Assembly (NCBI RefSeq): GCF_055900595.2
Contig: NZ_CM148325.1
DNA: 64,000 nucleotides
Reading direction: 5' to 3' (one strand)
Shown here in pieces: positions 1 to 61,823 of this stretch. The stretch's first letter is position 1, and every line of letters starts with the position of its first letter. The notes beneath the pieces are model-generated. The model worked only from the letters and a program-made list of their open reading frames with translations, searched no databases and was not told the origin of the DNA. The translations under genes were made by a program, and so were the position numbers.

Positions 1-1076
<1,076 letters not shown>

Positions 1077-1269
1077 TCACAACCCGAAGATGTTTCTTTC
1101 GATTCATCATCGTGTTGCGAAAATTTGAGAGACTCACGAACAACTCTCGTTGTTCAGTGTTTCAATTTTCAGCTTGATCCAGATTTTTAAAGAGCAAATA
1201 TCTCAAACGTCACCCGAAGATGAGTTTTGAGATATTAAGGCAGGTGACTTTCACTCACAAACCAGCAAG

Positions 1270-1345
1270 TGGCGTCCCCTAGGGGATTCGAACCCCTGTT
1301 ACCGCCGTGAAAGGGCGGTGTCCTGGGCCTCTAGACGAAGGGGAC
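1270..1345 (-). tRNA. gltT: tRNA-Glu (UUC) in the 16S-23S spacer
   Basis: Reverse complement reads GTCCCCTTCGTCTAGAGGCCCAGGACACCGCCCTTTCACGGCGGTAACAGGGGTTCGAATCCCCTAGGGGACGCCA, a 76-nt E. coli tRNA-Glu including the encoded CCA. Confidence 0.95.
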
Positions 1346-1430: not shown

Positions 1431-2972
<1,542 letters not shown>

Positions 2973-3102
2973 AAAAGTTTGATGCTCAAAGAATTAAACT
3001 TCGTAATGAATTACGTGTTCACTCTTGAGACTTGGTATTCATTTTTCGTCTTGCGACGTTAAGAATCCGTATCTTCGAGTGCCCACACAGATTGTCTGAT
3101 AA

Positions 3103-3116
3103 ATTGTTAAAGAGCA
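3103..3116 (-). promoter_or_regulatory. rrn leader boxA antitermination element
   Basis: Reverse complement contains TGCTCTTTAACAA, the boxA consensus of rrn leaders. Confidence 0.8.
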
Positions 3117-3153
3117 GTGCCGCTTCGCTTTTTCTCAGCGGCGCGGGGTGTGC

Positions 3154-3181
3154 ATAATACGCTTTCCCGCTTCAGAGTCAA
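3154..3181 (-). promoter_or_regulatory. rrnB P2 promoter (-35 TTGACT, -10 TATTAT)
   Basis: Reverse complement reads GCTTGACTCTGAAGCGGGAAAGCGTATTATGCACACC, which matches the rrnB P2 core as I recall it. Confidence 0.8.
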
Positions 3182-3271
3182 GCATTTTTTTGCTTTTCTC
3201 TGTCGAGATTCTCAGGAGAATCTCGCTGACCCGGCGGCGTGTTTGCCGTTGTTCCGTGTCAGTGGTGGCGC

Positions 3272-3325
3272 ATTATAGGGAGTTATTCCGGCCTGACAAG
3301 AGGAAATTTAAAATAATTTTCCGAC
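3272..3325 (-). promoter_or_regulatory. rrnB P1 promoter core (-35 TTGTCA, -10 TATAAT) with A/T-rich UP element
   Basis: Reverse complement reads AGAAAATTATTTTAAATTTCCTCTTGTCAGGCCGGAATAACTCCCTATAATGCGCCACCACTG, the textbook rrnB P1 with its UP element. Fis sites would lie further upstream, overlapping the murI 3' end. Confidence 0.9.
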
Positions 3326-3344
3326 CGCGCAACATTCAACCAAA

Positions 3345-4202
3345 TCAGTCTAAAACTGCCAGTTTTTCGAGCGTTTCGAAGCCGTAGCGCTGTAAAACGG
3401 GCAATAATTGTTCAGCTTCTGGCGTCATTGCCATACAAAAGGCAATATTCGCATCGGCGGATTTTGCATCCGGGGCTTCATGTTCTAACAACCAGGCCGT
3501 TCGGCGAGCAATCGCTGCGCCAGAATCCACCAGCCGTGTTCCCTCTGGCAGCACTTGTAACAGTTCTTCTTGTAGTAGAGGGAAGTGGGTACACCCCAGA
3601 ACAACGGTATCTGGTGGCTCTTTCATTCTTAACCACGGGCGCAAGATACGCTTTAGTGCATCCAGAGAAACATCTTCGCCATGCAGCTTCGCTTCAGCCA
3701 ACTCAACCATCTCTGCCGAGCCCAGCATTTCTATCTGGCATTCATTAGCGAAACGCGCGATCAGCTCATGAGTATAAGAACGTTTAACTGTTCCGCGGGT
3801 TGCCAGTAATCCGACAATGCCATTTGCCGTCAGACGTGCAGCAGGTTTAATCGCCGGCACGACACCAACAACCGGGAAGTCGAACTTTTCGCGTAATGCA
3901 GGAAGTGAAACGGTACTGGCGGTGTTGCAAGCGACCACTGCCAGCGCAAGGGGATAGCGTTCTTGCACTGCGGTGACAATTGCCACCACTCGCTCAACAA
4001 TAAACTCTTCGCTTTTTTCGCCATAAGGGAAAGCGACGTTATCGAAAGCATAAATGTAATGGAGATCCGGCAAGAGATGCCGGATCTCGTCATAGACCGA
4101 CAACCCACCGACGCCGGAGTCAAACACCAGCACGGTGGGACGTGGTTCAGAAGGTGTAGCTGCCAGACAAGGTGTATTCCCGTCCTGCAGTTTGGTAGCC
4201 AT
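3345..4202 (-). CDS. murI: glutamate racemase
   Basis: ORF 3345..4214; translation from the internal Met ([33 protein letters not shown]...) matches MurI. The start at 4202 gives the known 56-nt overlap with the btuB 3' end. Confidence 0.9.
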
Positions 4203-5991
4203 AGACTGTCTCATAATCTTTGTCGAACAGGTTGGCTATTTTACCACGAACTGTCAGGTGAGAGGTGACCGGATACGCAACCGCAAGATCCCACAAGCTC
4301 ACACCGCCCATTTTCACGGTTTGATACGGCCAGGAGGAGTAATCCTTATCATAGCGAGTGCCTAAATACTGATAAGTAATACCCCAGTCGAAGTCATACA
4401 ACTGCCAGTCGAGCTGGTATTTCACCTGCTGTTTAGCACGGCGTAACAACGGCGTGTCGGTAATTGCATTGCGCGCATCGACATAATCATAACTCACAGT
4501 ATGCGTCAGTGGTCCGGTATCAAAATTGGCGGTCGCCTCGACGCCCTTAATTCGCGCTTTCCCTTCGTTATAGTATTTCAGGGTGTGATCATCGTAATCG
4601 ATCAAGTCACTGACATCGTTACGATATCCAGAAATACGCCAGTTCACCCCAGCGGTTAAGCCTTCAAACGCGCCTTCCCACTGTTTGCTTTTCTCAGGTT
4701 CCAGATTTGGATTTCCGTAGAAGCCATACAGTTGTCCAAGATTTGGTGCCTTATAAGATGTCCCGTAGGAAGCAATGAAGCGATAGCCTTCGATGAATTC
4801 CCAACCAGCGCTGGTTTGCCAGGTTCCATGACGACCAAACTGTGAGTTATCGTCGCTGCGTGCTGCGCCTTCAAAGGTAAAATCGCCGACTTGTTGCAGC
4901 CCGGTCAGATAGATGCCGGTATTACGTTGATCATATCCATCCTCAACGTAACCTGTACCCGGCGTCGTAGTCTGTTTCTGCCAGTCGACACCCGCACCAA
5001 TACTACCGTGACCAACGATGACATTGTTTGCCCACTGGACGGTGTATTGCTTCATCTCATCAAGCGTCGCCGACGAATCATAACGACCATAATGCGGATC
5101 GTAGTTGTAATCTTTGCTATGGCTATAGCTGGTAATGAGTTGTGATTTAATCAGTTCGCCGTTATAGCGCAGCCCGGCGTCCCAACTTTGGCTATAGAGT
5201 TTACGGGTATCGAGCAACGGTGAGCCGGGAGAATAATATGCGTCATAATTGGTATGGTTATCATAGCCATAGCCGCGCACAAAACCGCTCCAGACATCAG
5301 TAAAGTTATGCTCCAGCGCGCCATAAAGCGTTTTACTTAAAAAACCATCGTTATCTGGCTGAGCTTGCGTTCCGGTATTACCATAGGCGACAACATCATA
5401 ACCATGAGTATGGGCATAATCGCCCAACAGCGTTACCCGTGTCTTATCTCCCAGTAGTTGCTGTGTAGAAACATCATAGTTCTGATAGCTATTGCTTCCC
5501 CACCCTGCTGAAATTTCCGTTCCGGGTTGATCGCGCGTCGTGATGATATTCACGACCCCACCTATTGCATCGGAACCATAAACAGCGGAGCGCGGCCCAC
5601 GGATATATTCAACACGCTGGACAAGCGCAATAGGGAACTGGCTAAGGTCGGCAGAACCACTCACCCCCGCCAGATTCAGGCGTACGCCATCAATTAACAC
5701 CAACACATGACTGGCATTTGTACCGCGAATAAAAATAGAAGAGAGTTGACCTGAACCGCCGTTTTGGGTGATATCGACACCCGGAAGACGGCGCAGCACA
5801 TCATTGACCGAGGTCGACTGCCAGCGGTCGATATCCTGACGCGTCACAACGGTGGTTGGTGCAAGCACAGTGCTGCGCGGCTGTTCAAAACGGTTAGCCG
5901 TAACGACGAGAGTATCCGGGCTGGTATCCTGTGCCCAAGCAGAAAATGCCGTGACGGAACACGCCGTCAGCAGCGAAGCTTTTTTAATCAT
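4147..5991 (-). CDS. btuB: TonB-dependent outer-membrane vitamin B12 transporter
   Basis: ORF 4147..6036; the mature start [20 protein letters not shown] gives 614 aa, the length I recall for BtuB. The TonB box (DTLVVTA) and C-terminal beta-barrel are present. The first 15 codons of the ORF belong to the leader. Confidence 0.93.
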
Positions 5992-6232
5992 TGTAAAGCA
6001 TCCACAATAGAAGAAGGATGCCGCAGGCTTCATCAATATTACGCGATGATGAGAACCAGATGCGACGTTAGCCGGCAGGTCTTCGGGCTTGGAGGGGTAT
6101 ATAAAATACTAAGAGATGATGACTTCCCACCGGATGGCAGTGTCCGCATAACGCAATCATCGCACCTTTCCTTACCGCTGCGCGTCAGCTCCAGATTTGC
6201 ACTGGATTCCCTATTAACTCACAGGACCGGCG
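5992..6232 (-). promoter_or_regulatory. cobalamin (B12) riboswitch in the btuB 5' leader
   Basis: Reverse complement matches the btuB leader as I recall it (GCCGGTCCTGTGAGTTAATAGGGAATCCAGTGCGAATCTGGAGCTGACGCGCAGCGGTAAGGAAAGGTGCGATGATTGCG...). Boundaries are approximate. Confidence 0.8.
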
Positions 6233-6359
6233 AGTGGATGCTACAGGTTGTAACAAGTTGCTGTCCAGACGTAGCTCACAAATAGAAATACATCAAGATC
6301 TGGACATCTGATGAGCAATCCCTACAATCGCCGCGTACATTTCATTTTCAGGATACATC

Positions 6360-8839: not shown

Positions 8840-10240
8840 ATGCCACATTCCTACGATTACGATGCCATAGTAATAGGTTCCGGCCCCGGCGGCGAAGGCG
8901 CTGCAATGGGCCTGGTTAAGCAAGGTGCGCGCGTCGCAGTTATCGAGCGTTATCAAAATGTTGGCGGCGGTTGCACCCACTGGGGCACCATCCCGTCGAA
9001 AGCTCTCCGTCACGCCGTCAGCCGCATTATAGAATTCAATCAAAACCCACTTTACAGCGACCATTCCCGACTGCTCCGCTCTTCTTTTGCCGATATCCTT
9101 AACCATGCCGATAACGTGATTAATCAACAAACGCGCATGCGTCAGGGATTTTACGAACGTAATCACTGTGAAATATTGCAGGGGAACGCTCGCTTTGTTG
9201 ACGAGCATACGTTGGCGCTGGATTGCCCGGACGGCAGCGTCGAAACACTAACTGCTGAAAAATTTGTTATTGCCTGCGGTTCTCGTCCATATCATCCAAC
9301 AGATGTTGATTTCACCCATCCACGCATTTATGACAGCGACTCAATTCTTAGCATGCACCACGAACCGCGCCATGTACTTATTTACGGTGCTGGAGTGATC
9401 GGCTGTGAATATGCGTCGATCTTCCGCGGTATGGATGTAAAAGTGGATCTGATCAACACCCGCGATCGTCTGCTGGCGTTTCTCGATCAAGAGATGTCAG
9501 ATTCTCTCTCCTATCACTTCTGGAACAGTGGCGTAGTGATTCGTCACAACGAAGAGTACGAGAAGATCGAAGGCTGTGACGACGGTGTGATCATGCATCT
9601 GAAGTCGGGTAAAAAACTGAAAGCTGACTGTCTGCTCTATGCCAACGGTCGCACCGGTAATACCGATTCGCTGGCGTTACAGAACATTGGGCTGGAAACT
9701 GACAGTCGCGGACAGCTGAAGGTCAACAGCATGTATCAGACCGCGCAGCCGCACGTTTACGCGGTGGGCGACGTGATTGGTTATCCGAGCCTGGCGTCGG
9801 CAGCCTATGACCAGGGGCGTATTGCCGCACAGGCGCTGGTGAAAGGTGAAGCCACCGCACATCTGATTGAAGATATCCCTACCGGTATTTACACCATCCC
9901 GGAAATCAGCTCTGTGGGCAAAACCGAACAGCAGCTGACCGCGATGAAAGTGCCATATGAAGTGGGCCGCGCCCAGTTCAAACATCTGGCACGCGCACAA
10001 ATCGTCGGCATGAACGTGGGCACGCTGAAAATTTTGTTCCATCGGGAAACAAAAGAGATTCTGGGCATTCACTGCTTTGGCGAGCGCGCTGCCGAAATTA
10101 TTCATATCGGTCAGGCGATTATGGAACAGAAAGGTGGCGGCAACACTATTGAGTACTTCGTCAACACCACCTTTAACTACCCGACGATGGCGGAAGCCTA
10201 TCGGGTAGCCGCGTTAAACGGTTTAAACCGCCTGTTTTAA
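8840..10240 (+). CDS. sthA: soluble pyridine nucleotide transhydrogenase
   Basis: 466-aa ORF with an FAD-binding GSGPGG motif and a pyridine nucleotide-disulfide oxidoreductase fold; matches SthA/UdhA over its full length as I recall it. Its 3' end overlaps oxyR by 18 nt. Confidence 0.95.
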
Positions 10241-11140
10241 CACTTTATCGAAATGGCCATCCATTCTTGCGCGGATGGCCTCTGCCAGCTGCTCATAGCG
10301 GCTGCGCAGCGGTGAGCCCGGACGATAAACCAGGCCAATAGTGCGGCGTGGTTCCGGCTTAATACACGGCAAATAAACAACCCCATCGCGTTTACGCTCC
10401 GGCGGCACAGCCAGCGCAGGCAGTAAAGTGATCCCGCTACCTGCCGCCACCATGTTGCGCAGAGTTTCCAGGCTGGTCGCGCGGAAGTGTGTATCTTCAT
10501 CCGCCCCGGCTTCAAAGCAGAAACCCATTGCCTGATCGCGCAAACAGTGACCATCTTCCAGCATCAGCAGTTTTTCCCCTGCCAGATCGGCCATTGGTAC
10601 GCATTCGCGGTTCGCCCACGGGTGATCTTCATAGATAGCCAGCAACATTGGCTCATCAAACAACGGCACTTCAATGAATGCTTCGCTCTCTTTCACCAGC
10701 GCGAGGATCACGCAATCGAGTTTGCCGCTGTCCAGTTGCGCCAGTAACTGGTGGGTCTGTGCTTCATGCAGATACATTTCCAGCTTTGGAAAGGTCTGGT
10801 GCAGCATCGGGATAATATGCGGTAACAGGTAAGGCCCAACCGTGGGAATCAAACCAATATGCAGCGGCCCGGACATTGTCTCGCCCTGCTGGCTTGCCAT
10901 CTCTTTAAGGACTTTCACCTCACGCAGCACGGTACGCGCCTGATCCACCAGCAGCATTCCCGCCTGGGTGAATAACACTTTACGGCTGGTCCGCTCCAGC
11001 AACATCACGCCCAGCTCATCTTCCAGCTTACGAATTTGCCCGCTAAGCGTCGGCTGGCTAACGTGGCAGGAATCTGCCGCACGCCGAAAATGACGGTGTT
11101 CAGCCAATGCCACCAGGTACTCAAGATCACGAATATTCAT
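10223..11140 (-). CDS. oxyR: LysR-family hydrogen peroxide-inducible regulator
   Basis: ORF 10223..11170; the internal start [40 protein letters not shown] gives 305 aa, the length I recall for OxyR, and includes redox Cys199 and Cys208. Confidence 0.95.
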
Positions 11141-11235: not shown

Positions 11236-11352
11236 GAAACGGAGCGGCACCTCTTTTAACCCTTGAAGTCACTGCCCGTTTCGAGAGTTTCTCAACTCGA
11301 ATAACTAAAGCCAACGTGAACTTTTGCGGATCTCCAGGATCCGCTTTTTTTT
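11236..11352 (+). ncRNA. oxyS: OxyS small regulatory RNA with intrinsic terminator
   Basis: Sequence GAAACGGAGCGGCACCTCTTTTAACCCTTGAAGTCACTGCCCGTTTCGAGAGTTTCTCAACTCGAATAACTAAAGCCAACGTGAACTTTTGCGGATCTCCAGGATCCGCTTTTTTTT matches oxyS; the 3' hairpin GCGGATC...GATCCGC is followed by a U-run. Confidence 0.92.
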
Positions 11353-11391: not shown

Positions 11392-12675
11392 TTACTCAAT
11401 CCGATCTTTGACAATAAAGAAGTAACACAGCGCCCCGGTGAACGTCACACAGGCCGCGATAACCAGCGCCAGATTAAACGAGTGCGTGGTATCCACTACC
11501 CAACCGGTTACGATCGGAGCAAAGGAAGCAAAAACAAAACTGCCAAAGTTTTGAATCCCGGCGATGGAAGCCACTTTTGTTTCTGACACCATCACCTGCA
11601 CCAGTCCCCATGCAGATGTTCCCGCGAAATGCACGCAGAACAGCGCCATTGAGATAAACGCTACAGCCTGGGCTGGCGAGGAGGATTGCACGACCAGCAA
11701 CGTGCCTAATGCCGACATCATCAAACCGCAGACAATAGCCGTTTTACGCGTCTTCGCCAGGTCGTAGCCTTTTTTCGCCAGCCGATCGACAACAATACCG
11801 TTAACCCACATCCCGACCGCCGCCGCGAGGAAAGGAATCGCCGCCACCCAACCGGTTTTCGCCAGACTGAAGCCTTGCTCGGCTTGTAAATAACCGGGTA
11901 ACCACGCGATGTAGAGCCAACCGGTATAATTGACGCCAGAGAAACCTAAAATCATCCCCCAGGTTGTCCGATGCTTAAACAGCGCCAGCCACTCGCTAAA
12001 TTGTAATTGTGGACGCGGTTTAACCGGCGCGGAGAGATAGGTCCGTTCTTCGTCGGTCAGGACAAACTGCGCCCGGTTGCGATACCACGCGTACCAACAG
12101 ATCCCAACCAGAATCCCCGCCACGCCGATGATGACGAACATTGCCCGCCAGCCCCATGCCAGCTGCATCAATACAAGAGCAGGAGGCGCAATAGCCTGAC
12201 CGATAACGGTAGATGAGTTAAAAATCCCCAGCGCCGTGCCGCGTTCTTTTTGCGCATACCAGTCGGTGATCGACTTTACTCCCGCAGGCATAAATGGCGC
12301 TTCGCCAATACCCAGACCGATACGCATTAAAATAAAGTGGCTAAAAGAATTAACCATTCCTGTTAATGCCTGCATTAATGACCAGAATATTAAGCCTGCA
12401 CCTAAAACTATTCGTGGGCCAAAGCGGTCTAGCAAAATACCGGAAGGGAGTTGTGAAAAACCATAAGACAGAGAAAATGCAGAAAGCAAAACGCCAAATT
12501 CTGTCGCCGATAATCCTAACTCGCCACGAATCGCTTCGCCTGCCACGCTCAATGACGAACGGTCGAGGAAATTAACGATCCCCGCCATAAATAATAAAAC
12601 CAGCGTTACTGTCTGAATACGACGAATCCGTTGCGGTTTATTACCCGCAACACTGGTTGACACATCAACGTCCAT
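11392..12675 (-). CDS. MFS transporter, anion:cation symporter family (sugar-acid permease, DgoT/GudP-like)
   Basis: 427-aa ORF with about 12 predicted TM segments and an N-terminal FLDRSSLSVAG motif, reminiscent of hexuronate/aldonate ACS-family permeases. Confidence 0.75.
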   Translation of the reverse strand: MDVDVSTSVAGNKPQRIRRIQTVTLVLLFMAGIVNFLDRSSLSVAGEAIRGELGLSATEFGVLLSAFSLSYGFSQLPSGILLDRFGPRIVLGAGLIFWSLMQALTGMVNSFSHFILMRIGLGIGEAPFMPAGVKSITDWYAQKERGTALGIFNSSTVIGQAIAPPALVLMQLAWGWRAMFVIIGVAGILVGICWYAWYRNRAQFVLTDEERTYLSAPVKPRPQLQFSEWLALFKHRTTWGMILGFSGVNYTGWLYIAWLPGYLQAEQGFSLAKTGWVAAIPFLAAAVGMWVNGIVVDRLAKKGYDLAKTRKTAIVCGLMMSALGTLLVVQSSSPAQAVAFISMALFCVHFAGTSAWGLVQVMVSETKVASIAGIQNFGSFVFASFAPIVTGWVVDTTHSFNLALVIAACVTFTGALCYFFIVKDRIE

Positions 12676-12741
12676 TTTTAGCTCCTTGAGCGGAATTAAT
12701 CGATTTGCTGACTATTCAGAAAATAATTAAGCGAACCGTTA

Positions 12742-13956
12742 TTACCAGTTCCACAATGTGCCATCTTCCAGTCGTGCGACGGGGAGATACGCCGGGTCAT
12801 ACGGATATTTCGCCGCCAGTTTCTCATCGAAAGAAATACCCAGCCCCGGTTCATCGCCTGGGTGCATATAACCTTCATCGAAGCGCCAGCTGTGCGGGAA
12901 GACTTCAAGCATTTGTTCGGAATAGCCCATGTACTCCTGAACACCAAAGTTTGGCACCCAGAGGTCAAAATGCAGCGCCGCCGCATGACAAACAGGCGAT
13001 AAATCTGAAGGGCCATGCGAACCGGTACGTACCTGATAAAGCGATGCAAAATCGGCAATCCGTCGCATCCCGGTAATGCCGCCTGCATGGGTAATCGTCG
13101 TGCGAATATAGTCAATCAGCTGCTCTTCGATTAACTGCTTGCAGTCCCAGATACTGTTAAACACTTCACCGACCGCAATCGGCGTCACAGTATGCTGGCG
13201 AATCAGACGAAAACATTCCTGGTTCTCGGCAGGCGTCGGATCTTCCATCCAGAACAGGCGGTAATCCTCTATGCTCTTCCCAAAGCGTGCCGCTTCGATA
13301 GGAGTCAGGCGATGGTGCATGTCATGCAACAGATGTTCGTTAAAACCGAACTTATTACGCACCGCTTCAAATAACTTCGGTGTAAAATCGAGATACTTTT
13401 CTGAAGACCACAACTGCTCTTCCGGCCACAGGCCTTTGGTTGCCGGTTCATACGCCAGTCCTTTGCCCTTCGCCAGGCCATAAGTGGTTTGCATACCCGG
13501 TACACCGCACTGCACACGAATCGCCTTAAAGCCCATCTGCTGGTGCTTTGCATAGTCTTCAAGGACTTCATCAATCGTGCGCCCGGTGGTGTGGCAATAA
13601 ACCATCACGCCTTCACGAGAAGCCCCACCAAGCAGTTGATACAATGGCATATTTGCCGCTTTGGCTTTGATATCCCACAACGCCATATCAATGGCAGAAA
13701 TGGCCGACATCGTGACGGGGCCACGTCGCCAGTAAGCACCTTTATAAAAGAATTGCCAGATATCTTCGATACGACTGGCATCGCGGCCAATTAATTGTGG
13801 ACAAAGATGATCTTTCAGATAAGAAGCGACCGACAATTCGCGACCATTTAATGTGGCATCTCCCAATCCACAAAGTCCGCTTGCAGTGGTTATTTTAAGC
13901 GTAACGAAATTACGTCCTGGGCAAGTAACAAAAACATCTGCAGCAATAATTTTCAT
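12742..13956 (-). CDS. enolase-superfamily dehydratase, RspA/ManD-like (putative D-mannonate/aldonate dehydratase)
   Basis: ORF 12742..14016; from the internal Met ([24 protein letters not shown]...) it is 404 aa and aligns along its whole length with the E. coli starvation-sensing protein RspA as I recall it. Confidence 0.8.
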
Positions 13957-14343
13957 TATTGCAATCTCCTGTGTTGTAAATAGACGCTTCAAACTTAATT
14001 TTACGCCTACTACCATACAAGAGAGAAAGAGCGATTATTCAACCGTGATCACATTAAAAATAAAAATTTCCACCGAGGAACAAAAATATCCTCAAATCTC
14101 ACCTACACTATTAACTACCATCGTTAAAACAACGTGTTAAATAATCACATAACAAATTCCTTTAAGGAAGGGAGTTATAACAACAACAAAAGATAATCAT
14201 ATTTTACTTAATTCAATACGTATCGATAGGTTTATTTAAAAAGGATTTTTCGGAATGAGAGATGAAAAGAAGATACACAAGCAGGAAGAAATACGATTAA
14301 TATTAGTTGCGGTAAGGGTAGCCGTTCCTCCCTTCCGCAACCC

Positions 14344-14444
14344 ATTAACCGTTGAAGTCACAGACTATTTCAGGCATTTCTCAACTCAAAATAACGACAG
14401 CCAACGTGAACTTTATGGCTCTCCAGGATCTGCTTTGTTTTCCA
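14344..14444 (+). other. degenerate duplicate of the oxyS 3' half (relic, not a functional gene call)
   Basis: Roughly 75-80% identity by eye to oxyS 11262..11352 on the same strand (shared blocks TTAACC, TTGAAGTCAC, TTTCTCAACTC, AGCCAACGTGAACTTT, CTCCAGGATC). The terminator stem is eroded. Ends exactly at the kinase stop codon. Confidence 0.6.
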
Positions 14445-15923
14445 TCAAACAACGGAGCTCAGCGCACTGGCTACCTGTTTAAAGCGAGCAAACCGTCGCC
14501 TGAGCATGTGTGCTTTTTCTACATTCGGTTCAAGACGAATCACGTTGAGCTGCGTAGCCTTCATGGCCTGTTTGAATCCAGAATAAGCCCCTCCTCCTAC
14601 TGCCGCACACATTGCAGCCGCTCTACAACCTGACTGTTCAATATCGACAATTTCAAGAGGCATTTTGCTGGCATCACAAAACATCTGCATCCAGATTCTG
14701 GAATGCGTTGGCCCGCCAGAGAAACGAATCGTTTGCAATGACTTATCAATCTCAATAAGACGGTCCTGATGCAACAAATGAGAAAAGACAATGCCCTGAT
14801 AAATAGCGTACACCAAATCTTCTCTTTTATGATGCCCACACAGCCCCAAAAATCCCCCGCTTAATGCCTCATGGTAATTCGAGCCAAACAACCACGGGAA
14901 AAAGAGAATATCATTCTGCTTCTCATACCCTCGTTCCACCCACTCATTAATCACCCGATAACTGTCAGGAAGATCCGGTAAAAATTGCTGCAAGAACCAT
15001 GTCAAATTACTGGCTGATGTAGGGCTTCCCTCATGGGCGAAAAATGTACCTGGAATGCTAAATTTCCCCCATACATAGGGATAATCAGAAGGAATAATGC
15101 GATCAAAGATTCGCGTTGCAATTGACCAGGTGCCAGCAACCGCACTTAACGTTGTACTGTCATAGATGCCAGAAGTGAGCGCCGCACCAACGACATCAAA
15201 AACACCACCAAAAACAGGCGTTCCGGCGAGAAGCCCACATTGGCTGGCTGCTTCAGATGTCACAAACCCAGCTAAATCAGCGGAGCCAATAATATCGGGA
15301 ACCTTACCCGCAACTTCCTTAATCTCAAATAGGCGAAAAAGTTCAGCATCATAAGCACTGGTATATTGATTATAAAAATTACTGCCTGAAATATTGGTTT
15401 CTTCACAAGCCAGTTTGCCAGTAAGCCGTGAACGTATGTAATCATGAACCATCAAAATGGTTCCGATGCGGCCATAATTGTCAGTCTCATGTTTTTTCAA
15501 CCAATGCAATAGTGCTACAGGGTGCGATGGCCAGAGCTGTTGCAGACTACGGTGATAACTTTCGCGGTCAATTCCTTGTTCTTTCCAGCTTGCAACCAGT
15601 TGTTGTGCGCGAGAATCAGAGGAAACAATGCCGTGTCGTAAGGGCTTACCTTGCCGGTCGAGCAGGTACAAACCTTTACCATGAGCAGAAAAACTGATGC
15701 CATCAATCTGACTCGCAGTAATATTGTTATCTGACATCGACAGTGAAATGACCTGGCACGTTACCTTCCATAACGCCTCCATGTCGCGTTCGCAAAAACC
15801 AGGACATGGGCTTAACAGAGGTAACGCCTGCGAAGAGACACCTATTTCACGTCCTTCTGCCGTATAAATTCCCGCTTTGGTTTCTGTACCACCTAAATCG
15901 ACACCAATAAAATACCGCTCCAT
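14445..15923 (-). CDS. FGGY-family carbohydrate kinase, L-xylulokinase (LyxK)-like
   Basis: 492-aa ORF with an N-terminal GVDLGGT phosphate-binding motif; global resemblance to E. coli LyxK/SgbK. Confidence 0.8.
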   Translation of the reverse strand: MERYFIGVDLGGTETKAGIYTAEGREIGVSSQALPLLSPCPGFCERDMEALWKVTCQVISLSMSDNNITASQIDGISFSAHGKGLYLLDRQGKPLRHGIVSSDSRAQQLVASWKEQGIDRESYHRSLQQLWPSHPVALLHWLKKHETDNYGRIGTILMVHDYIRSRLTGKLACEETNISGSNFYNQYTSAYDAELFRLFEIKEVAGKVPDIIGSADLAGFVTSEAASQCGLLAGTPVFGGVFDVVGAALTSGIYDSTTLSAVAGTWSIATRIFDRIIPSDYPYVWGKFSIPGTFFAHEGSPTSASNLTWFLQQFLPDLPDSYRVINEWVERGYEKQNDILFFPWLFGSNYHEALSGGFLGLCGHHKREDLVYAIYQGIVFSHLLHQDRLIEIDKSLQTIRFSGGPTHSRIWMQMFCDASKMPLEIVDIEQSGCRAAAMCAAVGGGAYSGFKQAMKATQLNVIRLEPNVEKAHMLRRRFARFKQVASALSSVV

Positions 15924-15939
15924 GATCCCTCCTTAGTTT

Positions 15940-16803
15940 CTAAATATTATCCCAGCCGGCAAAGCGCATTTTCTCTTCAATCCATTGACGTGCATGAATA
16001 ATTTCTAATAGAGGTTCCGTCGCTTTTTCTGTCCACATTTCTATCAGAAACGTTCCGCGATAATTAAGATTACGCAGGATCTTAAATAATTTAATAAAAT
16101 CTACACACCCTTCACCAAAAGGAACGTCACGAAATTGCCCTGGAGAATCAGGCGTTACTGGGTACGTATCTTTAAGATGGATTGCGGCAATTCGATCAAT
16201 CCCCTTTACCAGCTCACTTTCCAGTTCATTACCCCATGCGGTCAGATTGCCAACATCCGGATAAACGGTAAACCAAGGGGAATTAATTTTTGTATCCAGG
16301 ACTTTCCATTTACTAATAGAATTAATAAATGGCGTATCCATGATCTCTACAGCACACATAACTTGTGCCGCTGCGGCCTGTTCAGCTGTCCAGGCCATCG
16401 CATCTTCAAACCAGGCGATAGTTTCTTCATTCTGCGGCTCATAATAAACGTCATAGCCTGCCAGTTGGATTGTTCGAATCCCCAAATCCTGCGCCAGGCG
16501 TAACGCCTTCAACATAATCGTACGTGCCTGCTGACGAGTATCTCTATCATGGCTACCAAATGGAAAACGCCGGTGAGCAGACAGGCACATTGTCGGAATA
16601 CGGATCCCCGTTTGCTGAATGGCGCTAATAAGCTCCATACGCTCGGTGAGCGACCAGTCCAGGCGGGCGAGTCGTTCATCATTCTCATCTACCGACATCT
16701 CAACAAAATCAAAACCGCAAGATTTAGCCAGGGCTAGTTTCTCTACCCAACTGGTATTCCTGGGTAGCGCTTTTTCATAAATACCTAACGGGTGGCGTCG
16801 CAT
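15940..16803 (-). CDS. L-ribulose-5-phosphate 3-epimerase (UlaE/SgbU family, TIM barrel)
   Basis: 287-aa ORF; the N-terminal LGIYEKALP...FDFVEMSVDE...RLDWS...CLSAHRRFP pattern matches UlaE/SgbU closely. Confidence 0.82.
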   Translation of the reverse strand: MRRHPLGIYEKALPRNTSWVEKLALAKSCGFDFVEMSVDENDERLARLDWSLTERMELISAIQQTGIRIPTMCLSAHRRFPFGSHDRDTRQQARTIMLKALRLAQDLGIRTIQLAGYDVYYEPQNEETIAWFEDAMAWTAEQAAAAQVMCAVEIMDTPFINSISKWKVLDTKINSPWFTVYPDVGNLTAWGNELESELVKGIDRIAAIHLKDTYPVTPDSPGQFRDVPFGEGCVDFIKLFKILRNLNYRGTFLIEMWTEKATEPLLEIIHARQWIEEKMRFAGWDNI

Positions 16804-17879
16804 TATTTTCCCTCACGAGTGATCAATTGTTGTTGAAAGATTTTCCGGCTCTTATTCATGTCACGCTGCAACTGCCATTTTTGTTTGATGAATTTAAATG
16901 CCAGTGCGGCGATCAATGTGATCCCCCATACCGCCAGATTGAAATGCAAACTAAGTCCCAACAGACTAAGGCCGGTAGCAATAACCTGAAGCACAAGTAA
17001 GGCACAAAAAACATGACTGACTTTACCCGCCCCACCGAATGGATCTGTGCCTCCCAATACAATTGCAAGAACCGTCAAGAGCAGATAGGAATCGCCATAG
17101 CCCATACGCGCCGAATTAAATCGCGCGAGCATAATAAGACCTGCTAATACACACAACATGCTGGATATAGCATATATAGCAATTAATACGCGGTCGGTGC
17201 GAATACCGCTAAACCATGTGGCGTTAATATTACTGCCACACATATAAATCGTTTTTCCCGTACGGGTTTTGCCGAGGAACAGAGCTAAAGCAACGGTGGT
17301 GACGATAAAAATTATCATCGGTACTGGGATCCCCATGATAACTTCAGACCCAATACTGCGGACTACTGGTGGCATACCACTTAAAGCTGCCCCCTTAGTC
17401 AGGTAAATACCGATACCACTAATAATGGTCATGCTACCCAATGTGACCAAAATAGGGTGAGCGCCTATATGAGAAATAATTGACCCAGTAATAGCTCCAA
17501 TGATGATGGCAATAAGCATCGCCCCGACAATAGCCAGGAAGAGCCAAAACAACTGACTACCTGTAGATGCATCTGCGGGTACATATTGAATCAACAGCCA
17601 GGCCATAAACAGGCTGGTCAGATTCGCAGTACCGATGATTGCCAGATTGAGCCCCCCGCTCAACATGGGTATAAACATCGCAAACGTGAGCAACCCAAGC
17701 TCTGGCAATTGAAATGCAATGCTCAGAAAAGTATTGCCGGTGAAAAAACGCCCCGGCATTACCAGACTAAATAACACCACCGCAATAAAACATATTGATA
17801 ATAAGCCTGAACTGGTACCATCTAGTGGAAAAAATATCCGCTTGTTCATTTCGATCCTCCCGTTAGACGAAACCAACAT
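16803..17879 (-). CDS. monosaccharide ABC transporter permease (CUT2 family)
   Basis: 358-aa polytopic membrane protein immediately downstream of a paralogous permease. True start may be the internal Met (MNKRIFF) at 17849. Confidence 0.75.
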   Translation of the reverse strand: MLVSSNGRIEMNKRIFFPLDGTSSGLLSICFIAVVLFSLVMPGRFFTGNTFLSIAFQLPELGLLTFAMFIPMLSGGLNLAIIGTANLTSLFMAWLLIQYVPADASTGSQLFWLFLAIVGAMLIAIIIGAITGSIISHIGAHPILVTLGSMTIISGIGIYLTKGAALSGMPPVVRSIGSEVIMGIPVPMIIFIVTTVALALFLGKTRTGKTIYMCGSNINATWFSGIRTDRVLIAIYAISSMLCVLAGLIMLARFNSARMGYGDSYLLLTVLAIVLGGTDPFGGAGKVSHVFCALLVLQVIATGLSLLGLSLHFNLAVWGITLIAALAFKFIKQKWQLQRDMNKSRKIFQQQLITREGK

Positions 17880-18855
17880 CAGTTTCTTTACGTTTTTTGT
17901 AATGGGTCACACAAATCGCCGAGACAATAACCACTCCAATAACGATATTGACGAAATAACTCGAGATGCCAATCAAATTAAGGCCGTTTTTAAGAATACC
18001 GATAAGAAATACGCCCATAAGCGTACCAATGACCGTACCACGTCCGCCTGATAAACTGGCACCGCCCAATACCGCTGCAGCCAGCACATCCAACTCTCCG
18101 CCAACCAATGCATTCGGCACAACTTCACTCATACGGTAAGCTTGCAGCATTCCACCAATTGCTGCAGCGGCACCAAGATAACCATAAGCAAACAGATAAA
18201 TTAGCGACACCCGAATCCCAATACGTCTTGCTGATTCGGTATTCCCTCCCACGGCATAAAGCTGACGCCCAATATGGGTTTTGTTCATTATCATCCACGT
18301 CAGAAATGCCATTCCCAGCATAACCACTAACGGTAATCCGATCTGGTAATCTTCTCCGCCAAATTCAAAACTCAGGAAAGAACGCTGCGTAATCCACCAA
18401 TCCGGTAAATCGTAAATACTGTGGCCATTAGTCAACCACATCAACATACCGAACAGTAGCGACTGCATACTAATCGTAATGATGATGGAAACGACATTAA
18501 GGTAATAAATAAGAATAGCGTTTATCAAACCAAAAATGATGCCAAGAAAAACAGCAAACACCAGACAGAAAAATGGATTTGATAGCGTTTCATTAAGCAG
18601 TAACGACGCCACAACATATTGCACAACCGAAGCTACTGCTGCAAAAGAGATATCAATTCCGCCAGTAACCAATACGACAAATAATCCGAGGGCGAAAATA
18701 CCCGTTACGGCATAACTTTCCGAGAGATCGAGCAAGTTCTGTATTGATAAAAACTCATCGCTCATGATGGAAAAAAATACCAGCATGAGAACAATGACCC
18801 ATCCTAACCAAGCTTCGACTGAACGAGGAAACCGCAGCCGCATAAAGCTAACCAT
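17863..18855 (-). CDS. monosaccharide ABC transporter permease (CUT2 family)
   Basis: 330-aa polytopic membrane protein; start overlaps the ATPase stop by 8 nt (translational coupling). Confidence 0.75.
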   Translation of the reverse strand: MVSFMRLRFPRSVEAWLGWVIVLMLVFFSIMSDEFLSIQNLLDLSESYAVTGIFALGLFVVLVTGGIDISFAAVASVVQYVVASLLLNETLSNPFFCLVFAVFLGIIFGLINAILIYYLNVVSIIITISMQSLLFGMLMWLTNGHSIYDLPDWWITQRSFLSFEFGGEDYQIGLPLVVMLGMAFLTWMIMNKTHIGRQLYAVGGNTESARRIGIRVSLIYLFAYGYLGAAAAIGGMLQAYRMSEVVPNALVGGELDVLAAAVLGGASLSGGRGTVIGTLMGVFLIGILKNGLNLIGISSYFVNIVIGVVIVSAICVTHYKKRKETDVGFV

Positions 18856-20365
18856 TAATCACCTCCGCCAACTGCTGCTCGGTATAATTCGAAGGCAACA
18901 GCTCATTAATAATCTTTCCGCGCTTCATATGAAAAATACGATCGCAGTTATAATAAGCTTCTGGTGCTTCATCAGTAATTAATATCACTGAAATACCCAC
19001 ACCTGAAAGCCGATGAATAAGCTGGTAAATACTATCTTTTGCGCCAATATCTACACCTACCGTTGGCGCATCCAGAATTAAAACCTTAGGTCGTGTTAAA
19101 ATCCATTTAGCCAGGACAACCTTTTGTTGATTGCCGCCAGATAGCGTTGAAAGTGGATTATTTGGATCGGTGACTTTAATATCCAAATCCTGGATCCACT
19201 CCTTGACTAAGGTTTCTTTTCGATTTTCATCAATAAACCCCGATGCCGTCTTTAAACGATCCAGAATCGAGAGCACCATATTATCGCTGATAGATTGGGG
19301 TAATACGGCCCCCAGTGTCAGGCGATCTTCTGAAACATATGCTATTCCCAGTTTTACCGCATGCGTGTTGTCTTTAATTGTAACGGGCTTACCTTCCAGA
19401 TAAATATCACCACTATCTGGTCGAGTAATACCGAAAAGACTCAATGCTAATTCAGTTCTCCCCGCACCAAGTAAACCACACAATCCCAGAACCTCGCCCT
19501 GGTGTAGTTTTAGAGAAACATCTTCAAATTGCCCTTTTCTGCATAATTTGTTTAGTTCAAGGACTACTTTGCCTTCAACGCTATTTGGTAGCTTCTTCTG
19601 GTGGACTATAGTTTTTCCGGTCATTAACTCAGTAATATCGCCCGGAGAAAGTTGATTGGCAGCCCACGTTCCAATTATCTCTCCATCACGGATGACCGTA
19701 ATCCGATCTGAAATTTCCTTAACTTCATCAAGGCGGTGGCTAACAAAAACTACGGTAATATTTTTATCGCGTAAGTAATTCACTGTGCGTAGTAATTGAT
19801 TAACTTCTGTACGCGTCAATGATGCCGTTGGCTCGTCCATGATGACTAAGCGGGCATCGGCAATCAGAGCCCGGCAAATCGCGACCTGTTGGCGTTGTGC
19901 AATCGGCAAATGTTGTACTAACGCATCAGGATCGAGATTGAATTGCAGCTCCTGAATTATTTTCTGCGATACATCTCGAAGTTGTTTTTTTCTGTGCAGC
20001 CCTAAATATCCCTTCAGGTTGTATTCAAAAGCGATATTTTCAGCAACAGAAAGATTTGGGAATAAAGAAAGATCCTGATATATCACCTGAATACCCAGTT
20101 CCCGAGCTTTATCAGGAGAAAGACGAGTCCAGGACTTACCATCTATAATAATTTCACTTCCCGAATCAGGGACATAAACACCACACAGCGTTTTGATCAG
20201 AGTACTTTTACCACACCCATTCGCACCAGCAAGACAATGAACCTCACCTTTATTTAAGGTAAGATTGATATTCTTTAGAGCCCTATGGCCACCGAAACTT
20301 TTCGTTAGTGACCTTAGCGTCACTAATGGTTGCTCCGCATTCTTCTCTATAATATGAGGCATCAT
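18848..20365 (-). CDS. sugar ABC transporter ATP-binding protein with duplicated nucleotide-binding domains
   Basis: 505-aa ORF with Walker A GANGCGKST, a second P-loop GLLGAGRTE and the ABC signature LSGGNQQKV; architecture of RbsA/AraG/LsrA-type importers. Confidence 0.85.
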   Translation of the reverse strand: MMPHIIEKNAEQPLVTLRSLTKSFGGHRALKNINLTLNKGEVHCLAGANGCGKSTLIKTLCGVYVPDSGSEIIIDGKSWTRLSPDKARELGIQVIYQDLSLFPNLSVAENIAFEYNLKGYLGLHRKKQLRDVSQKIIQELQFNLDPDALVQHLPIAQRQQVAICRALIADARLVIMDEPTASLTRTEVNQLLRTVNYLRDKNITVVFVSHRLDEVKEISDRITVIRDGEIIGTWAANQLSPGDITELMTGKTIVHQKKLPNSVEGKVVLELNKLCRKGQFEDVSLKLHQGEVLGLCGLLGAGRTELALSLFGITRPDSGDIYLEGKPVTIKDNTHAVKLGIAYVSEDRLTLGAVLPQSISDNMVLSILDRLKTASGFIDENRKETLVKEWIQDLDIKVTDPNNPLSTLSGGNQQKVVLAKWILTRPKVLILDAPTVGVDIGAKDSIYQLIHRLSGVGISVILITDEAPEAYYNCDRIFHMKRGKIINELLPSNYTEQQLAEVING

Positions 20366-20428
20366 AATATTCCTGAATACGACTAAAGGAATTCCGGGTC
20401 AAATTTGACCCGGTGATTTACAGTAAAA

Positions 20429-21433
20429 TTACAAGCCTAGCTTCACTAAACGTCGTGTATTTTCAAGATCGAGCTTTTCTGGATTATCACTATAAATAGT
20501 GTTGTTATTAACCTTGATCTCGCCCATATCACCGATTTTTACACCGTCTTTAATAGGTTCACCGTTCATCATTGCCGTCGCAACCTGGACAAAAACCTTA
20601 CCCGCAATCATAGGGTTTGAAATATATCCCCCATCAATGGCACCTTTTTCGAGTAGCTTAATTCCCTGACCTGGAGTGAAGGTTCCAAAAACGCAAATTG
20701 CATCATTTTTCTTCCGCTTATCAATAGCACGCCCCGCACCAATTGGTCCTTGTGAACCAAATGACATAATGCCTTTAAGATCTTTATATTTAGACATTAA
20801 ATCGTTCGTCGTGCGCATTGAATCATCCACCGACTCAGCAACACCAAAACGATCTTCAACCAACGTCATATTTGGATAATGTTCTTTTTGATAGGCAATC
20901 GCGGCATTGGCCCAGTCATTTACCAAAGGCACAGTCAGACTGCCGACAAACATGGCGTATTTACCTTCTTCGCCCATACACTTCGCCATATCTTTCATAT
21001 GATTGGCACCCATTGTCTGGGTATTTAACAACTCAAAATCCCAATCTGCATTTTTTTGATCTGGTGATTCGTGGGTAATAACTTTAATACCGGCTTCTTG
21101 TGCACGCTTAAGTACAGGTTCAAGAACCTTTGCATCGTTAGGAACAACACCAATAACATCCACTTTTCGTGCAATTAAATCTTCAATCGCCCGAACCTGT
21201 TCAGCTGGATCTGCCGTTGTAGGGCCGACCTGCCATGCATCAACCCCCAATAGTTTTCCTTCATTTTTAATGCCTTGTTCCATCACATTAAACCAGGGAA
21301 TTCCACCGACTTTTACTACTACCCCCATCGTAAAAGGTTTATTCGCTTTTTGTGATGTTACAGTCTGATCAGCCCATGCAGCAGTGGAAGATAATACGGT
21401 AGCAATAAGGCAGGGTAAGATTAATTTTTTCAT
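20429..21433 (-). CDS. periplasmic sugar-binding protein (type I PBP, ABC substrate-binding component)
   Basis: 334-aa ORF with an N-terminal signal peptide (MKKLILPCLIATVLSSTAAWA) and LsrB/RbsB-like fold features; first gene of the transporter operon. Confidence 0.75.
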   Translation of the reverse strand: MKKLILPCLIATVLSSTAAWADQTVTSQKANKPFTMGVVVKVGGIPWFNVMEQGIKNEGKLLGVDAWQVGPTTADPAEQVRAIEDLIARKVDVIGVVPNDAKVLEPVLKRAQEAGIKVITHESPDQKNADWDFELLNTQTMGANHMKDMAKCMGEEGKYAMFVGSLTVPLVNDWANAAIAYQKEHYPNMTLVEDRFGVAESVDDSMRTTNDLMSKYKDLKGIMSFGSQGPIGAGRAIDKRKKNDAICVFGTFTPGQGIKLLEKGAIDGGYISNPMIAGKVFVQVATAMMNGEPIKDGVKIGDMGEIKVNNNTIYSDNPEKLDLENTRRLVKLGL

Positions 21434-21555
21434 CGTAATTTCCTTAAGAAATAGTTCAGGTGTCAGGAAAACTCGATATAATATCGACCTGACTATTTAT
21501 ATAATTTATAATCCCTTAGGCATTGATTAATAATTTAGACAATAAATAACGCCTA

Positions 21556-22365
21556 TTATTTATCAACCTCCACAATGTTTAATTGTGGAAATTGTGTTCG
21601 ATACCGAGTATCTGTACAAACATTAGTCACCAGAATATCGATTTCATCCAGCGTGCATATTTTACTAAATGCATACTGTTCAAACTTAGTGGAGTCGACC
21701 AGCAATATTTTTTGTCCTGACACCTGAAGCATCACCTGTTTAAGTCTGGCATTAATTTCACTGCCATCGCGGACACCATTCCCCAGATTCAACCCCTGGC
21801 ATGAAAAGAAAAAACTGTTGATTTGAAAATTTCGGATCGCACTCTCTGCAACCGGGCCATGAAAATCATCATGTCGCTCAGAATACTCACCACCGATACC
21901 AATAATTCGAACTCGATCACGGCAAGCTAACGCCTGAATTATCCGTAATGAATTTGTAACTACGGTAACATCTATATCGGGAATTTGACGAGCTAAAAAC
22001 CAACAAGTACTACTGTTATCCATTAAAATACAATCACCAGGGTGAATAAATTGCAATGCGGCCTTCGCAATTCTGGCTTTTATATCAGGATTTTCTTCAG
22101 TCCGTTTACGGAATGATTCCGCACGATCGATACTATTATCTTGCCACGCATTATCGGCGAGCATAACCGGAGCGCTATCAGATGAATCCAGAGCGACCGC
22201 GCCACCAAAGCTACGGATTAACTTTTTGTTGCGCTCCAGTACCGTTAAATCCCGACGAATTGTCTCAGGAGACGCTTTAAATAATCGTGATAATTCAGTT
22301 ACCCGCACAGCACCTTGTTTTTGTACATGTGCGCATATCATTTTATGGCGCTCTGCCTGCAACAT
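21556..22365 (-). CDS. DeoR-family transcriptional regulator
   Basis: 269-aa ORF with an N-terminal HTH (VRVTELSRLFKASPETIRRDLTVLE) and a C-terminal DeoR sugar-phosphate-binding domain. Confidence 0.8.
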   Translation of the reverse strand: MLQAERHKMICAHVQKQGAVRVTELSRLFKASPETIRRDLTVLERNKKLIRSFGGAVALDSSDSAPVMLADNAWQDNSIDRAESFRKRTEENPDIKARIAKAALQFIHPGDCILMDNSSTCWFLARQIPDIDVTVVTNSLRIIQALACRDRVRIIGIGGEYSERHDDFHGPVAESAIRNFQINSFFFSCQGLNLGNGVRDGSEINARLKQVMLQVSGQKILLVDSTKFEQYAFSKICTLDEIDILVTNVCTDTRYRTQFPQLNIVEVDK

Positions 22366-22806
22366 AGTATCGGTCCGTTATTATCAAATTAGCATGCTTA
22401 TATAATTAACTGTTCCCTCATAAAATAAAGTGATAGGAATCAAGATTCATTTTATAATTATAATCGCAAACAGGAATGGTGATCTTTATCACAAATTAAA
22501 TTGAGAACACTCTACTATTTGACATTACTTTGAGATATCGGTCACTAAATAAGTCTTATTCTGCCATCTAACGAAAAATTTAAATACAAAAACAAAAATA
22601 ATCGGGCATAGCAATCGCTTCCATTCATGACCGAATACGCCCGAATAAAACCGTTTATACCCACTTATCCTCTTTCGTTGCCTTCTTACATGCCTTGAAT
22701 ATTTTACATTTCTTATATTCAGCGTAATTTAGGAAACATAATTTATGAGCAAAAAAAGCCCAAACTCAAAAGTTAAAGTTTATTTATATAATACATACAG
22801 ATTATC

Positions 22807-23511
22807 GTGGAGTTAAAAATGGATATGCTAAAGGAAAAAGTTCTTGCTGCGAATTTATCATTACCCCTTCATCAGTTAGTGACGTTTACCTGGGGAAATG
22901 TTAGTGGTGTTGATCGCGAAAAAGGTGTCATGGTTATTAAACCTTCTGGGGTCGAATACAGCCAAATGGGCATTGCAGATATGGTGGTAGTGGATTTACA
23001 AAGTGGTGAAGTTATTGATGGACACAGGAAACCCTCTTCAGACACCGATACTCATCTGGCGCTATACCGTGCTTTCCCGGATATTGGTGGTATCGTTCAT
23101 ACCCATTCCCGACACGCCACAATATGGGCTCAGGCCGGAAAAGATCTCACGGCCTTTGGGACAACCCACGCTGATTATTTCTACGGCACTATCCCCTGTA
23201 CACGCCCCATGAAGGATGACGAAATTAATGGACAATATGAATATGAAACGGGGCGAGTGATTATTGAAACGTTCAGACAACGAGAAATATCTCCCGCTGA
23301 CATTCCGGCTGTTTTAGTAAACAGTCATGGCCCCTTTGCCTGGGGAACTGATCCCGCGAACGCCGTGCATAACGCCGTTGTACTTGAAGAAATTGCCTAT
23401 ATGAATCTCTTTACACAACAACTACAGCCCCATCTTACGGCTATTCAACAGCCTCTACTGGATAAGCATTTTTTACGCAAGCATGGTGCCAATGCTTATT
23501 ACGGGCAGTAA
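22807..23511 (+). CDS. L-ribulose-5-phosphate 4-epimerase (class II aldolase fold, AraD/SgbE/UlaF family)
   Basis: 234-aa ORF closely resembling AraD ([74 protein letters not shown]), including the conserved metal-binding His residues. Confidence 0.85.
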
Positions 23512-49237: not shown

Positions 49238-50797
49238 TTATTTAATATCTTTCACGCGCATACCGTTGATCTGTTCATCCGTGATGGTGTTACCCGCTTT
49301 AAAGTAATCAACCACCGCGTGATAAACGTAATAACCGCCCGTCGTATTGCGCGCTTTACCCTCGGTAAACGCGGTAAAACCATCTCCACCATCAGCAAGG
49401 AAACTCTGAGTAGCAATGTGGTAAACCGTCGCATCTTCAATCGGTTTGCCATTCAGCGTCAGCGAGATAACCCGCTGACCAACCGGCTTGCTGCTGTCGT
49501 ACTTCATTTCCAGGCCTTTCGATACCTGTAAAACGCCATTACTTAAACTTGCGCCGTGTTCCATCAAACCGCGTAATTGTTTACCCGTGAGTTCCATCGT
49601 CACCAGTTCGTTGGGGAACGGGAAGGTACTGATGACGCCACCCATCGTAATTGCACCCGCCGGGATCTCATTGCGAATCCCACCAGAGTTGGTTAACGCC
49701 AACTGGGTATTTTTACCCGCCGCTACCAGTAAAGCGTCCGCCGCCAGGTTCCCCAGGGATGCCGATTCACCATAGGCACGTTTTAATTCAACTGGCGATT
49801 GCGCCACCGTTTGCTGCACGACTTCATCCAGCTTTTTATTCCAACTATCAATCACCTGTTTTGTTTGCGCATCGGGCTTCCACTCGTCGGCGTAAAGGGT
49901 TTTAAGCTCGAAGTTTTTCACCGTAAAAGTGTGCGGTTTCTCTTTGTAGTCGAGAACCAGTTTACCCACATCAATCCCACCGCTGTCAGTGGAGAGGATG
50001 AGCGTATTGCCGACTTTAATCGGTTCCGGCGTACCCACATGTGCATGCCCGGTGATCAAAATATCCAGCCCTTTCACCTGACTTGCCGTCTGAATATCTT
50101 TATCCAGTGCGCGGCGCACATCTGTGCCCCCCATACTGGACTGGCGGGCCGGAACACCTTCGTGAATCAGCGCAACGGTCAAATCAACCTTGCCTTTGAG
50201 TTCATCGATATAACGTTGTAGCCATTTAATTTCATCACGCGCCTCAATACCCACTCGCGTTGCCGCAGATACCGTATCATTAAAGGCAAATACACCGTGC
50301 AAACCTATAACACCAATTTTCACGCCGTCTTTTTCAATAATGGTATATGGCTTATCCCAGAATGATTTACTGCTGTTCTGATAAAAAACATTACCCTGCA
50401 CAATCGGGAATTGTGCCTGACTCAACTGTAATAACGTATTGTCCCAGCCGTGATCAAATTCATGATTACCTATAGTGGCCGCATCGAACGGCATGGTATT
50501 CATAATATCGATAATCGCCTTGCCTTTAGTCAGGCTGCTGATATACGGCCCGGTAAAATAGTCACCCGCATCAAAAAACCAGGTCGCTTTGTTTTTAGCT
50601 TTTTCTTGTTTAACAAGCGTAGTGATATTTGCCCAGCCGCCAATATCCCGTTTACCCTCAGCAATCCACGGCACTTTATAGGGCTCTACATGTGCGTGGA
50701 GGTCATTGGTATAAATAATGGTGACATCTTTGGCGCAGGCCCAAAACGGCAGTGTTAATGCGATACCCGCAGCAAGCATTTTAATTTTCATAAACAA
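49238..50797 (-). CDS. secreted 5'-nucleotidase / UDP-sugar hydrolase family metallophosphoesterase (UshA-like), paralog 1
   Basis: 519-aa ORF with a signal peptide ([18 protein letters not shown]), calcineurin-like motifs ([30 protein letters not shown]) and a C-terminal 5'-nucleotidase domain with the FPF nucleobase clamp. Start may be M3 or M7. Confidence 0.8.
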
Positions 50798-50923
50798 TCC
50801 CTTCCAGTGAGATAAAGGATTGCTACATTACGTTCTGAAAGGCTTTTTTATGTGAGAATACTCACATCCAGAGGCAATAACTGTAGGACAAAATCGACGA
50901 CCTTATGAAATCGTTGGTGATAT

Positions 50924-52051: not shown

Positions 52052-52280
52052 TCAATACACTCGACAAACGACCATAAATTAATGGGATCACTATTTCTCA
52101 TTTAATTAAATATATGAATGTATGACTGAAAAATATAATCACAGTCAATGTTTAATTAATAACATTATTTGTTACTAAGATCACATAATACTTTCCTGAC
52201 CTATGCTTACATAAAAATAAGACACGGAGTTCCTTTTATTTAAATAATTCAACCAATGTAACAACCCCTATCAAGGAGGG

Positions 52281-53834: not shown

Positions 53835-53868
53835 AATATCATTTATCAGTCTATTTATTTAACAAGGA

Positions 53869-55494: not shown

Positions 55495-55504
55495 TAAAAA
55501 AATT

Positions 55505-55540
55505 ATAATGCCATTCATTCACTGAATGGCATTATTTTTC
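55505..55540 (+). terminator. intrinsic terminator after nucleotidase paralog 3
   Basis: Hairpin AATGCCATTCA-TTCAC-TGAATGGCATT followed by ATTTTTC. Confidence 0.7.
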
Positions 55541-55572
55541 TCTAAATCAACAATAAATAATGAGATATATTT

Positions 55573-61567: not shown

Positions 61568-61819
<252 letters not shown>

Positions 61820-61823
61820 CTAA

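Follow-up and report, generated by a model that had tools for sequence, protein, structure and literature searches.

We conclude with high confidence that the junction between btuB and murI in the window (the whole 64,000-nt stretch of DNA analysed here) is the known btuB–murI arrangement of Escherichia coli, with murI starting from the AUG at 4202..4200 on the minus strand. The two genes lie adjacent on that strand, between trmA and the 16S gene of rrnB (16S rRNA at 1431..2972). btuB, placed by mapping RefSeq annotation to the window and by the open reading frame listing, encodes a TonB-dependent vitamin B12 receptor of 614 aa (4147..5991), while murI, placed by the RefSeq annotation of a matching strain, encodes a glutamate racemase of 285 aa that begins MATKLQDG (3345..4202); the MurI proteins of its relatives match Pfam PF01177. 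Reading both strands showed that the genes share 56 nt in two frames (4147..4202, minus strand), made up of 53 sense bases and the btuB stop codon, the murI frame being shifted by one base relative to that of btuB. This stretch holds BtuB residues Tyr597 to Phe614 and the stop, together with MurI residues 1–18 and two bases of codon 19. The btuB frame ends in ...YTLSGSYTF followed by TGA at 4149..4147, and the murI ATG uses bases 2 and 3 of the BtuB Tyr597 codon (TAT) and base 1 of the Gly598 codon (GGC), its A being the second base of the former. A cobalamin riboswitch occupies the btuB leader (6057..6246, minus strand; Rfam RF00174, 87 bits; also in the RefSeq annotation) and its control of btuB bears on the expression of murI.

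The original prediction had described a 56-nt out-of-frame overlap running from the btuB stop to the Met of MATKLQDG, and the sequence agrees with it to the base at both ends. It had also called this the classic btuB–murI overlap, correctly naming genes, start, length and the K-12 precedent, and the direct comparison with the K-12 annotation that it proposed gives the same answer: in the RefSeq annotation of MG1655, btuB occupies 4163639..4165483 and murI 4165428..4166285, an overlap of again 56 nt (4165428..4165483). K-12 MG1655 (b3966/b3967) and the window have in common the genes, their order trmA–btuB–murI–rrnB, the strand relation, the length of the overlap, the start codon and the upstream cobalamin riboswitch, and from −48 to +59 the junction is identical in the two. 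The matching strain, NZ_CP098223.1, is identical over a 3.1-kb query, its RefSeq coordinates for murI (1546..2403) and btuB (2348..4192) give the same 56 nt, and the whole window is collinear with it, with 11 mismatches over ∼63 kb. The crystallised protein begins with the same Met, the 285-aa chain 2JFN_A (PDB) matching the window MurI over its full length (E = 3e-186); two positions of the aligned region distinguish the window MurI from the K-12 protein (PDB 2JFN sequence). The overlap is therefore not new, since it is an ordinary, textbook feature of E. coli that one paper terms “well-characterized”. Where we depart from the original prediction is in its use of the overlap as independent support for the choice of start codon, because the length of the overlap derives from the start that is chosen. 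A second overlap that it had reported, of 18 nt between the 3′ ends of the convergent genes sthA (8840..10240, plus strand) and oxyR (10223..11140, minus strand), does lie at 10223..10240, with the oxyR stop TAA at 10225..10223 (minus strand) and a K-12 equivalent at 4159390..4159407.

Elsewhere in the window, a block of ∼12 kb between oxyS and argH (11392..23511) is absent from K-12, where oxyS and the end of argH are 55 nt apart. The block carries genes for an MFS transporter, a ManD mannonate dehydratase, an FGGY kinase, an L-ribulose-5-phosphate 3-epimerase, a sugar ABC transporter, a DeoR regulator and an AraD-like epimerase. The metL–metF interval (49238..56433) contains genes for a Tsx-like nucleoside channel, three bifunctional metallophosphatase/5′-nucleotidases and one hypothetical protein, none of which is known from K-12 at that position. 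The remaining RNA elements are those expected: the OxyS sRNA beside oxyR (11236..11345, plus strand), the L31 ribosomal-protein leader upstream of rpmE (61787..61839, minus strand) and a StyR-44 match (1084..1192, minus strand) between the 23S rRNA (1..1076) and a tRNA (1273..1345) of the rRNA operon.

Conservation offers independent support for the murI start and suggests that initiation does occur at the AUG at 4202..4200. We assembled 86 loci from three families, comprising 80 Enterobacteriaceae species, five loci of Morganellaceae and Yersiniaceae (Proteus, Serratia, Xenorhabdus, Providencia and Photorhabdus) and the window itself. The first homologue search returned close Enterobacteriaceae only, and the more distant context, including these five loci, came from a search of representative sequences combined with contig look-ups. 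All 86 loci have the gene order trmA–btuB–murI and an ATG of the MATKLQ type, and in each the distance from the first base of this ATG to the btuB stop is exactly 56 nt; one locus carries an assembly frameshift farther up btuB, its junction being intact. Moreover, BtuB Tyr597, the residue whose codon contributes “AT” to the murI start, is encoded by TAT in 79 of 79 species, whereas TAT and TAC are about evenly used at nine other conserved tyrosine positions upstream in btuB. Fixation of this BtuB-silent site is what would be expected if the murI ATG is needed, and among the sequence comparisons it is the strongest single argument for the murI start.

Constraint on the overlap was assessed in codon alignments of 79 species, using the third positions of conserved residues. 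Over the rest of btuB and murI, which served as background, the mean entropy of these positions was 1.29 bits and 2 of 223 were invariant; within the overlap the btuB third positions averaged 0.14 bits and 11 of 16 were invariant. The murI third positions behaved in the same way, with 0.14–0.15 bits over codons 1–20 compared with about 1.0–1.6 bits over most other codons of the gene. Taken together, the alignments indicate that the 56-nt geometry is more than chance. At the other end of murI (3345..3380, minus strand), the last ∼10 aligned codons also vary little at synonymous sites (0.61 bits, against the same 1.0–1.6 bits over most of the gene); possibly, upstream promoter elements of the adjoining rrnB promoter region reach into the murI 3′ end.

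The choice of the MATKLQDG Met is thus upheld by conservation, but the original prediction had overlooked a second in-frame ATG 12 nt upstream (4214..4212, minus strand), from which murI would encode 289 aa and overlap btuB by 68 nt. Beyond it, the next in-frame element is a stop at 4238..4236, and K-12 has the identical sequence here. A length of 289 codons was reportedly predicted when murI was first described, and the upstream ATG occurs in the window, in K-12 and in four of the five loci from outside the Enterobacteriaceae. It is however polymorphic, since it depends on the codon used for BtuB Tyr593: among E. coli genomes, 4707 of 5426 (87%) carry the TAT allele that creates it, and 712 (13%) the TAC allele, which turns it into ACG and abolishes it. 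Across all loci it occurs in 6 of 86, and it is missing from 78 of the 80 Enterobacteriaceae species, where murI must still be made, as it must in the 712 E. coli genomes. Because most relatives lack it, the upstream ATG cannot, on this comparison, be the required start. In addition, nothing resembling a Shine–Dalgarno sequence lies upstream of it, and the 285-aa form is the one used by RefSeq and the one that was crystallised.

A caveat comes from published initiation data. Cell-free INRI-seq gave a weak in-frame alternative signal for K-12 murI at −15 (ATT), and the −12 ATG lies next to this position, inside the ±3 nt tolerance of the method; the signal is barely over threshold (6.4 CPM, in two of five replicates) and the corresponding in vivo Ribo-RET value is 0 (PMC9825163, Table S3). 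We therefore regard it as very unlikely that murI of this strain is made from the upstream ATG, although minor use of this codon may occur. In the accessible literature we found no MurI N-terminal sequence or in vivo initiation peak, a literature search for studies of MurI N-terminal extension or truncation gave nothing usable, and the TRAINSPOTTER supplements have no murI entry. A separate observation concerns Tyr593 itself, whose codon is TAC in 77 of 79 Enterobacteriaceae species, unlike the near-even use of TAT and TAC at the nine background tyrosine positions. This bias suggests that something selects for C at this site, or against an ATG.

The part of MurI that is encoded in the overlap differs in character from the rest of the protein. 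The alignment between solved MurI structures of other bacteria and the E. coli protein begins only at residue ∼24, and among 1.8 billion representatives searched, MurI proteins of 40–55% identity mostly aligned E. coli residue ∼20–24 to their own residue ∼3–12. Those representative N-termini that we read were unrelated, and in two loci that were fetched murI does not lie beside btuB. Enterobacterales MurI proteins, by contrast, all begin with related tails that fit the pattern MA[TI]..Q[DE].N..., and among the sequences compared here such tails were seen in this order only. AlphaFold2, run with a 40-sequence alignment, returned a mean pLDDT of 93.5 for MurI, with residues 1–13 below 50, residues 11–20 averaging 65 and the first strand beginning at residue 21. 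The model is consistent with the overlap encoding a lineage-specific MurI tail (residues 1–19) that is predicted to be disordered, and with the conserved racemase fold beginning at residue 21, right past the btuB stop.

Within the overlap, 7 of the last 18 BtuB residues are variable compared with 15 of the first 18 MurI residues, and 17 distinct nucleotide variants are silent in btuB and change MurI as opposed to 5 that do the reverse. By these counts BtuB is the dominant constraint on the shared sequence. We infer that the MurI tail would have been overprinted on a pre-existing, conserved C-terminal β-strand of BtuB, and that the length of the overlap would then have been held at 56 nt by two fixed features of BtuB, the Tyr-Gly dipeptide that contributes the start codon and the C-terminal Phe with its stop. 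Overprinted genes of phages and viruses likewise have two frames on one stretch of sequence, suppressed synonymous variation, and one young, lineage-restricted segment that is predicted to be disordered alongside an older, more constrained one. Here however just a 19-residue N-terminal tail is involved, rather than a whole new protein.

In another alternative reading, functional MurI would start from a GTG at codon 25 or 27, past the btuB stop, leaving the overlap as an untranslated annotation convention. The predicted disorder of the tail is compatible with such a start, as is the fact that MurI of other bacteria is made without one, and a TraDIS preprint reports viable transposon insertions inside the overlap (10.1101/2025.12.01.691526). 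These tolerated insertions are however biased ∼10:1 to one orientation (10.1101/2025.12.01.691526), as expected if the transposon supplies expression signals, and what they show is that cells can do without the tail or the native start, at least if it does so. Only some 70% of loci have the GTG codons themselves, an in-frame ATG, GTG or TTG between codon 2 and the FDSG motif is lacking altogether in 11 of 86, and no downstream in-frame murI start is universal among the 86, whereas the annotated ATG is universal and apparently held by selection at a btuB-silent site. Furthermore, most Ribo-seq ORF callers report btuB and murI as both translated, overlapping frames included (PMC8921622). Initiation past the btuB stop is therefore hardly credible, and we retain the AUG at 4202..4200 as the murI start.

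The geometry of the junction also bears on how murI is expressed. Short same-strand overlaps of 1–4 nt (ATGA, TAATG), at which translation of neighbouring genes is coupled, are like the btuB–murI overlap in that co-oriented neighbours share bases in different frames. Termination–reinitiation calls for a stop only a few nucleotides away from the start of the next gene, whereas here the murI start comes 53 nt before the btuB stop, with 18 full dual-coding codons in between, so that reinitiation by the terminating ribosome is not expected and coupling of this kind is unlikely. Ribosomes would probably initiate murI de novo, at the weak Shine–Dalgarno-like element GAGA (4209..4212, minus strand) that lies 7–10 nt upstream of the ATG. 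All 80 species have GAGAC at this place, and even the third base of the Glu codon GAG does not vary.

We also considered whether murI translation is coupled to that of btuB in general, tying MurI synthesis to BtuB and to B12 status. The two genes are on the same strand, ribosomes finishing btuB must cross the murI start region, and papers treat btuB–murI as one operon, a promoter-up mutant raising the transcript ∼300-fold (PMC10802341). Against this, RNA structure around the murI start was not significant (z = 0.24), which rules such structure out as a coupling device and leaves nothing stable that a btuB ribosome would need to unfold. In TraDIS, murI is an example of an essential gene and btuB of a non-essential one that tolerates transposon insertions (PMC9598634), and the essential murI still works when btuB is disrupted or most of it is removed (PMC9598634; 10.1101/2025.12.01.691526). 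Coupling would, moreover, let B12 repression of btuB starve the cell of an essential enzyme. We consider translational coupling unlikely on these grounds, as distinct from shared transcription: both transcription routes, through the btuB operon and from an internal site, probably exist. Being essential, and placed behind a dispensable gene that B12 represses, murI would need expression signals of its own.

Candidate signals lie immediately upstream of the murI ATG, in a 48-nt block (4203..4250, minus strand; btuB codons 581–596) in which only btuB is coding and synonymous variation is suppressed. Its mean entropy was 0.24 bits, and 9 of 15 third positions were invariant (binomial 1.8e-15 against the 2 of 223 of the background). 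The species are related, so that this P-value overstates their independence; the background, however, was drawn from these same alignments. The block is presumed, from this conservation, to represent the murI leader, its ribosome-binding region and/or a promoter. Within it, TGGTAAAAT (4238..4246, minus strand; 36–44 nt upstream of the ATG) resembles an extended −10 motif, in that its TGn precedes a hexamer of the TATAAT type whose second base is A and whose sixth is T. Bar a single variant, the motif is invariant in the 80 Enterobacteriaceae species. In the other families the motif reads TGGTAGAAT, TGCTAAAAT or TGCTAGAAT, corresponding to TGSTARAAT in Proteus, Serratia, Xenorhabdus, Providencia and Photorhabdus, and the pattern TGnTAnAAT is kept across three Enterobacterales families despite changes in BtuB (Gly to Ala, Lys to Arg).

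On the basis of this conservation, TGGTAAAAT may be an internal murI promoter. Like extended −10 (TGnTATAAT) σ70 promoters within coding sequence, it keeps the TG and the A2 and T6 of the hexamer and has no −35 element, none being found upstream when the sequence was read by eye; its conservation is at sites that are silent in btuB. The motif by itself is no rarer than chance, TGNTAWAAT occurring twice in the window against 5.2 expected. The upstream conservation could instead serve ribosome loading. A generic −35/−10 scan separately returned TTATCA-16-TATGAT at 4375..4348; this candidate is weak, and we set it aside, its region being without excess synonymous conservation (codons 231–240).

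Inside murI, 114 nt from its start, the sequence can form a hairpin (4062..4088, minus strand; codons 39–47) with a perfect 11-bp stem and a 5-nt loop, GAGATCCGGCA TCTCT TGCCGGATCTC, followed by CATTACATTT, which was flagged as terminator-like. In 47 species, 95.4% of the alignment cells pair, compared with 18–50% for controls slid along the sequence, and two pairs show compensatory changes, amino-acid changes among them (Asp to Asn, Ile to Val). The covariation exceeds that of all 500 shuffles. Rfam gave no family match at E≤1 over 3300..4700, a range that includes the hairpin.

Our tentative reading, which we hold as possible and somewhat short of probable, is that the last 16 btuB codons before the murI ATG would form a murI expression module, in which the extended −10 promoter TGGTAAAAT and a short leader allow murI to escape the B12 riboswitch; the murI hairpin may add a further control step.

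Some practical consequences of the overlap are already appreciated. A clean btuB deletion is impossible without touching the essential murI, and the overlap has been given as the reason that the Keio collection is without a btuB deletion (10.1101/2025.12.01.691526). Matches to ‘murI’ in a phage screen map solely to the overlap (10.1101/2025.12.01.691526), and such matches in phage-receptor screens are btuB artefacts. What our comparison adds is that the 56-nt geometry is constant throughout the Enterobacterales, and that this order-wide conservation is itself an argument, from sequence only, for the murI start codon. If the proposed module is real, ∼100 nt of the btuB 3′ end would be under three constraints, imposed by BtuB as a protein, by the tail of MurI and by the signals for murI expression, and an internal promoter would explain how an essential gene can lie downstream of a riboswitch-repressed one, a modest refinement of the known arrangement.
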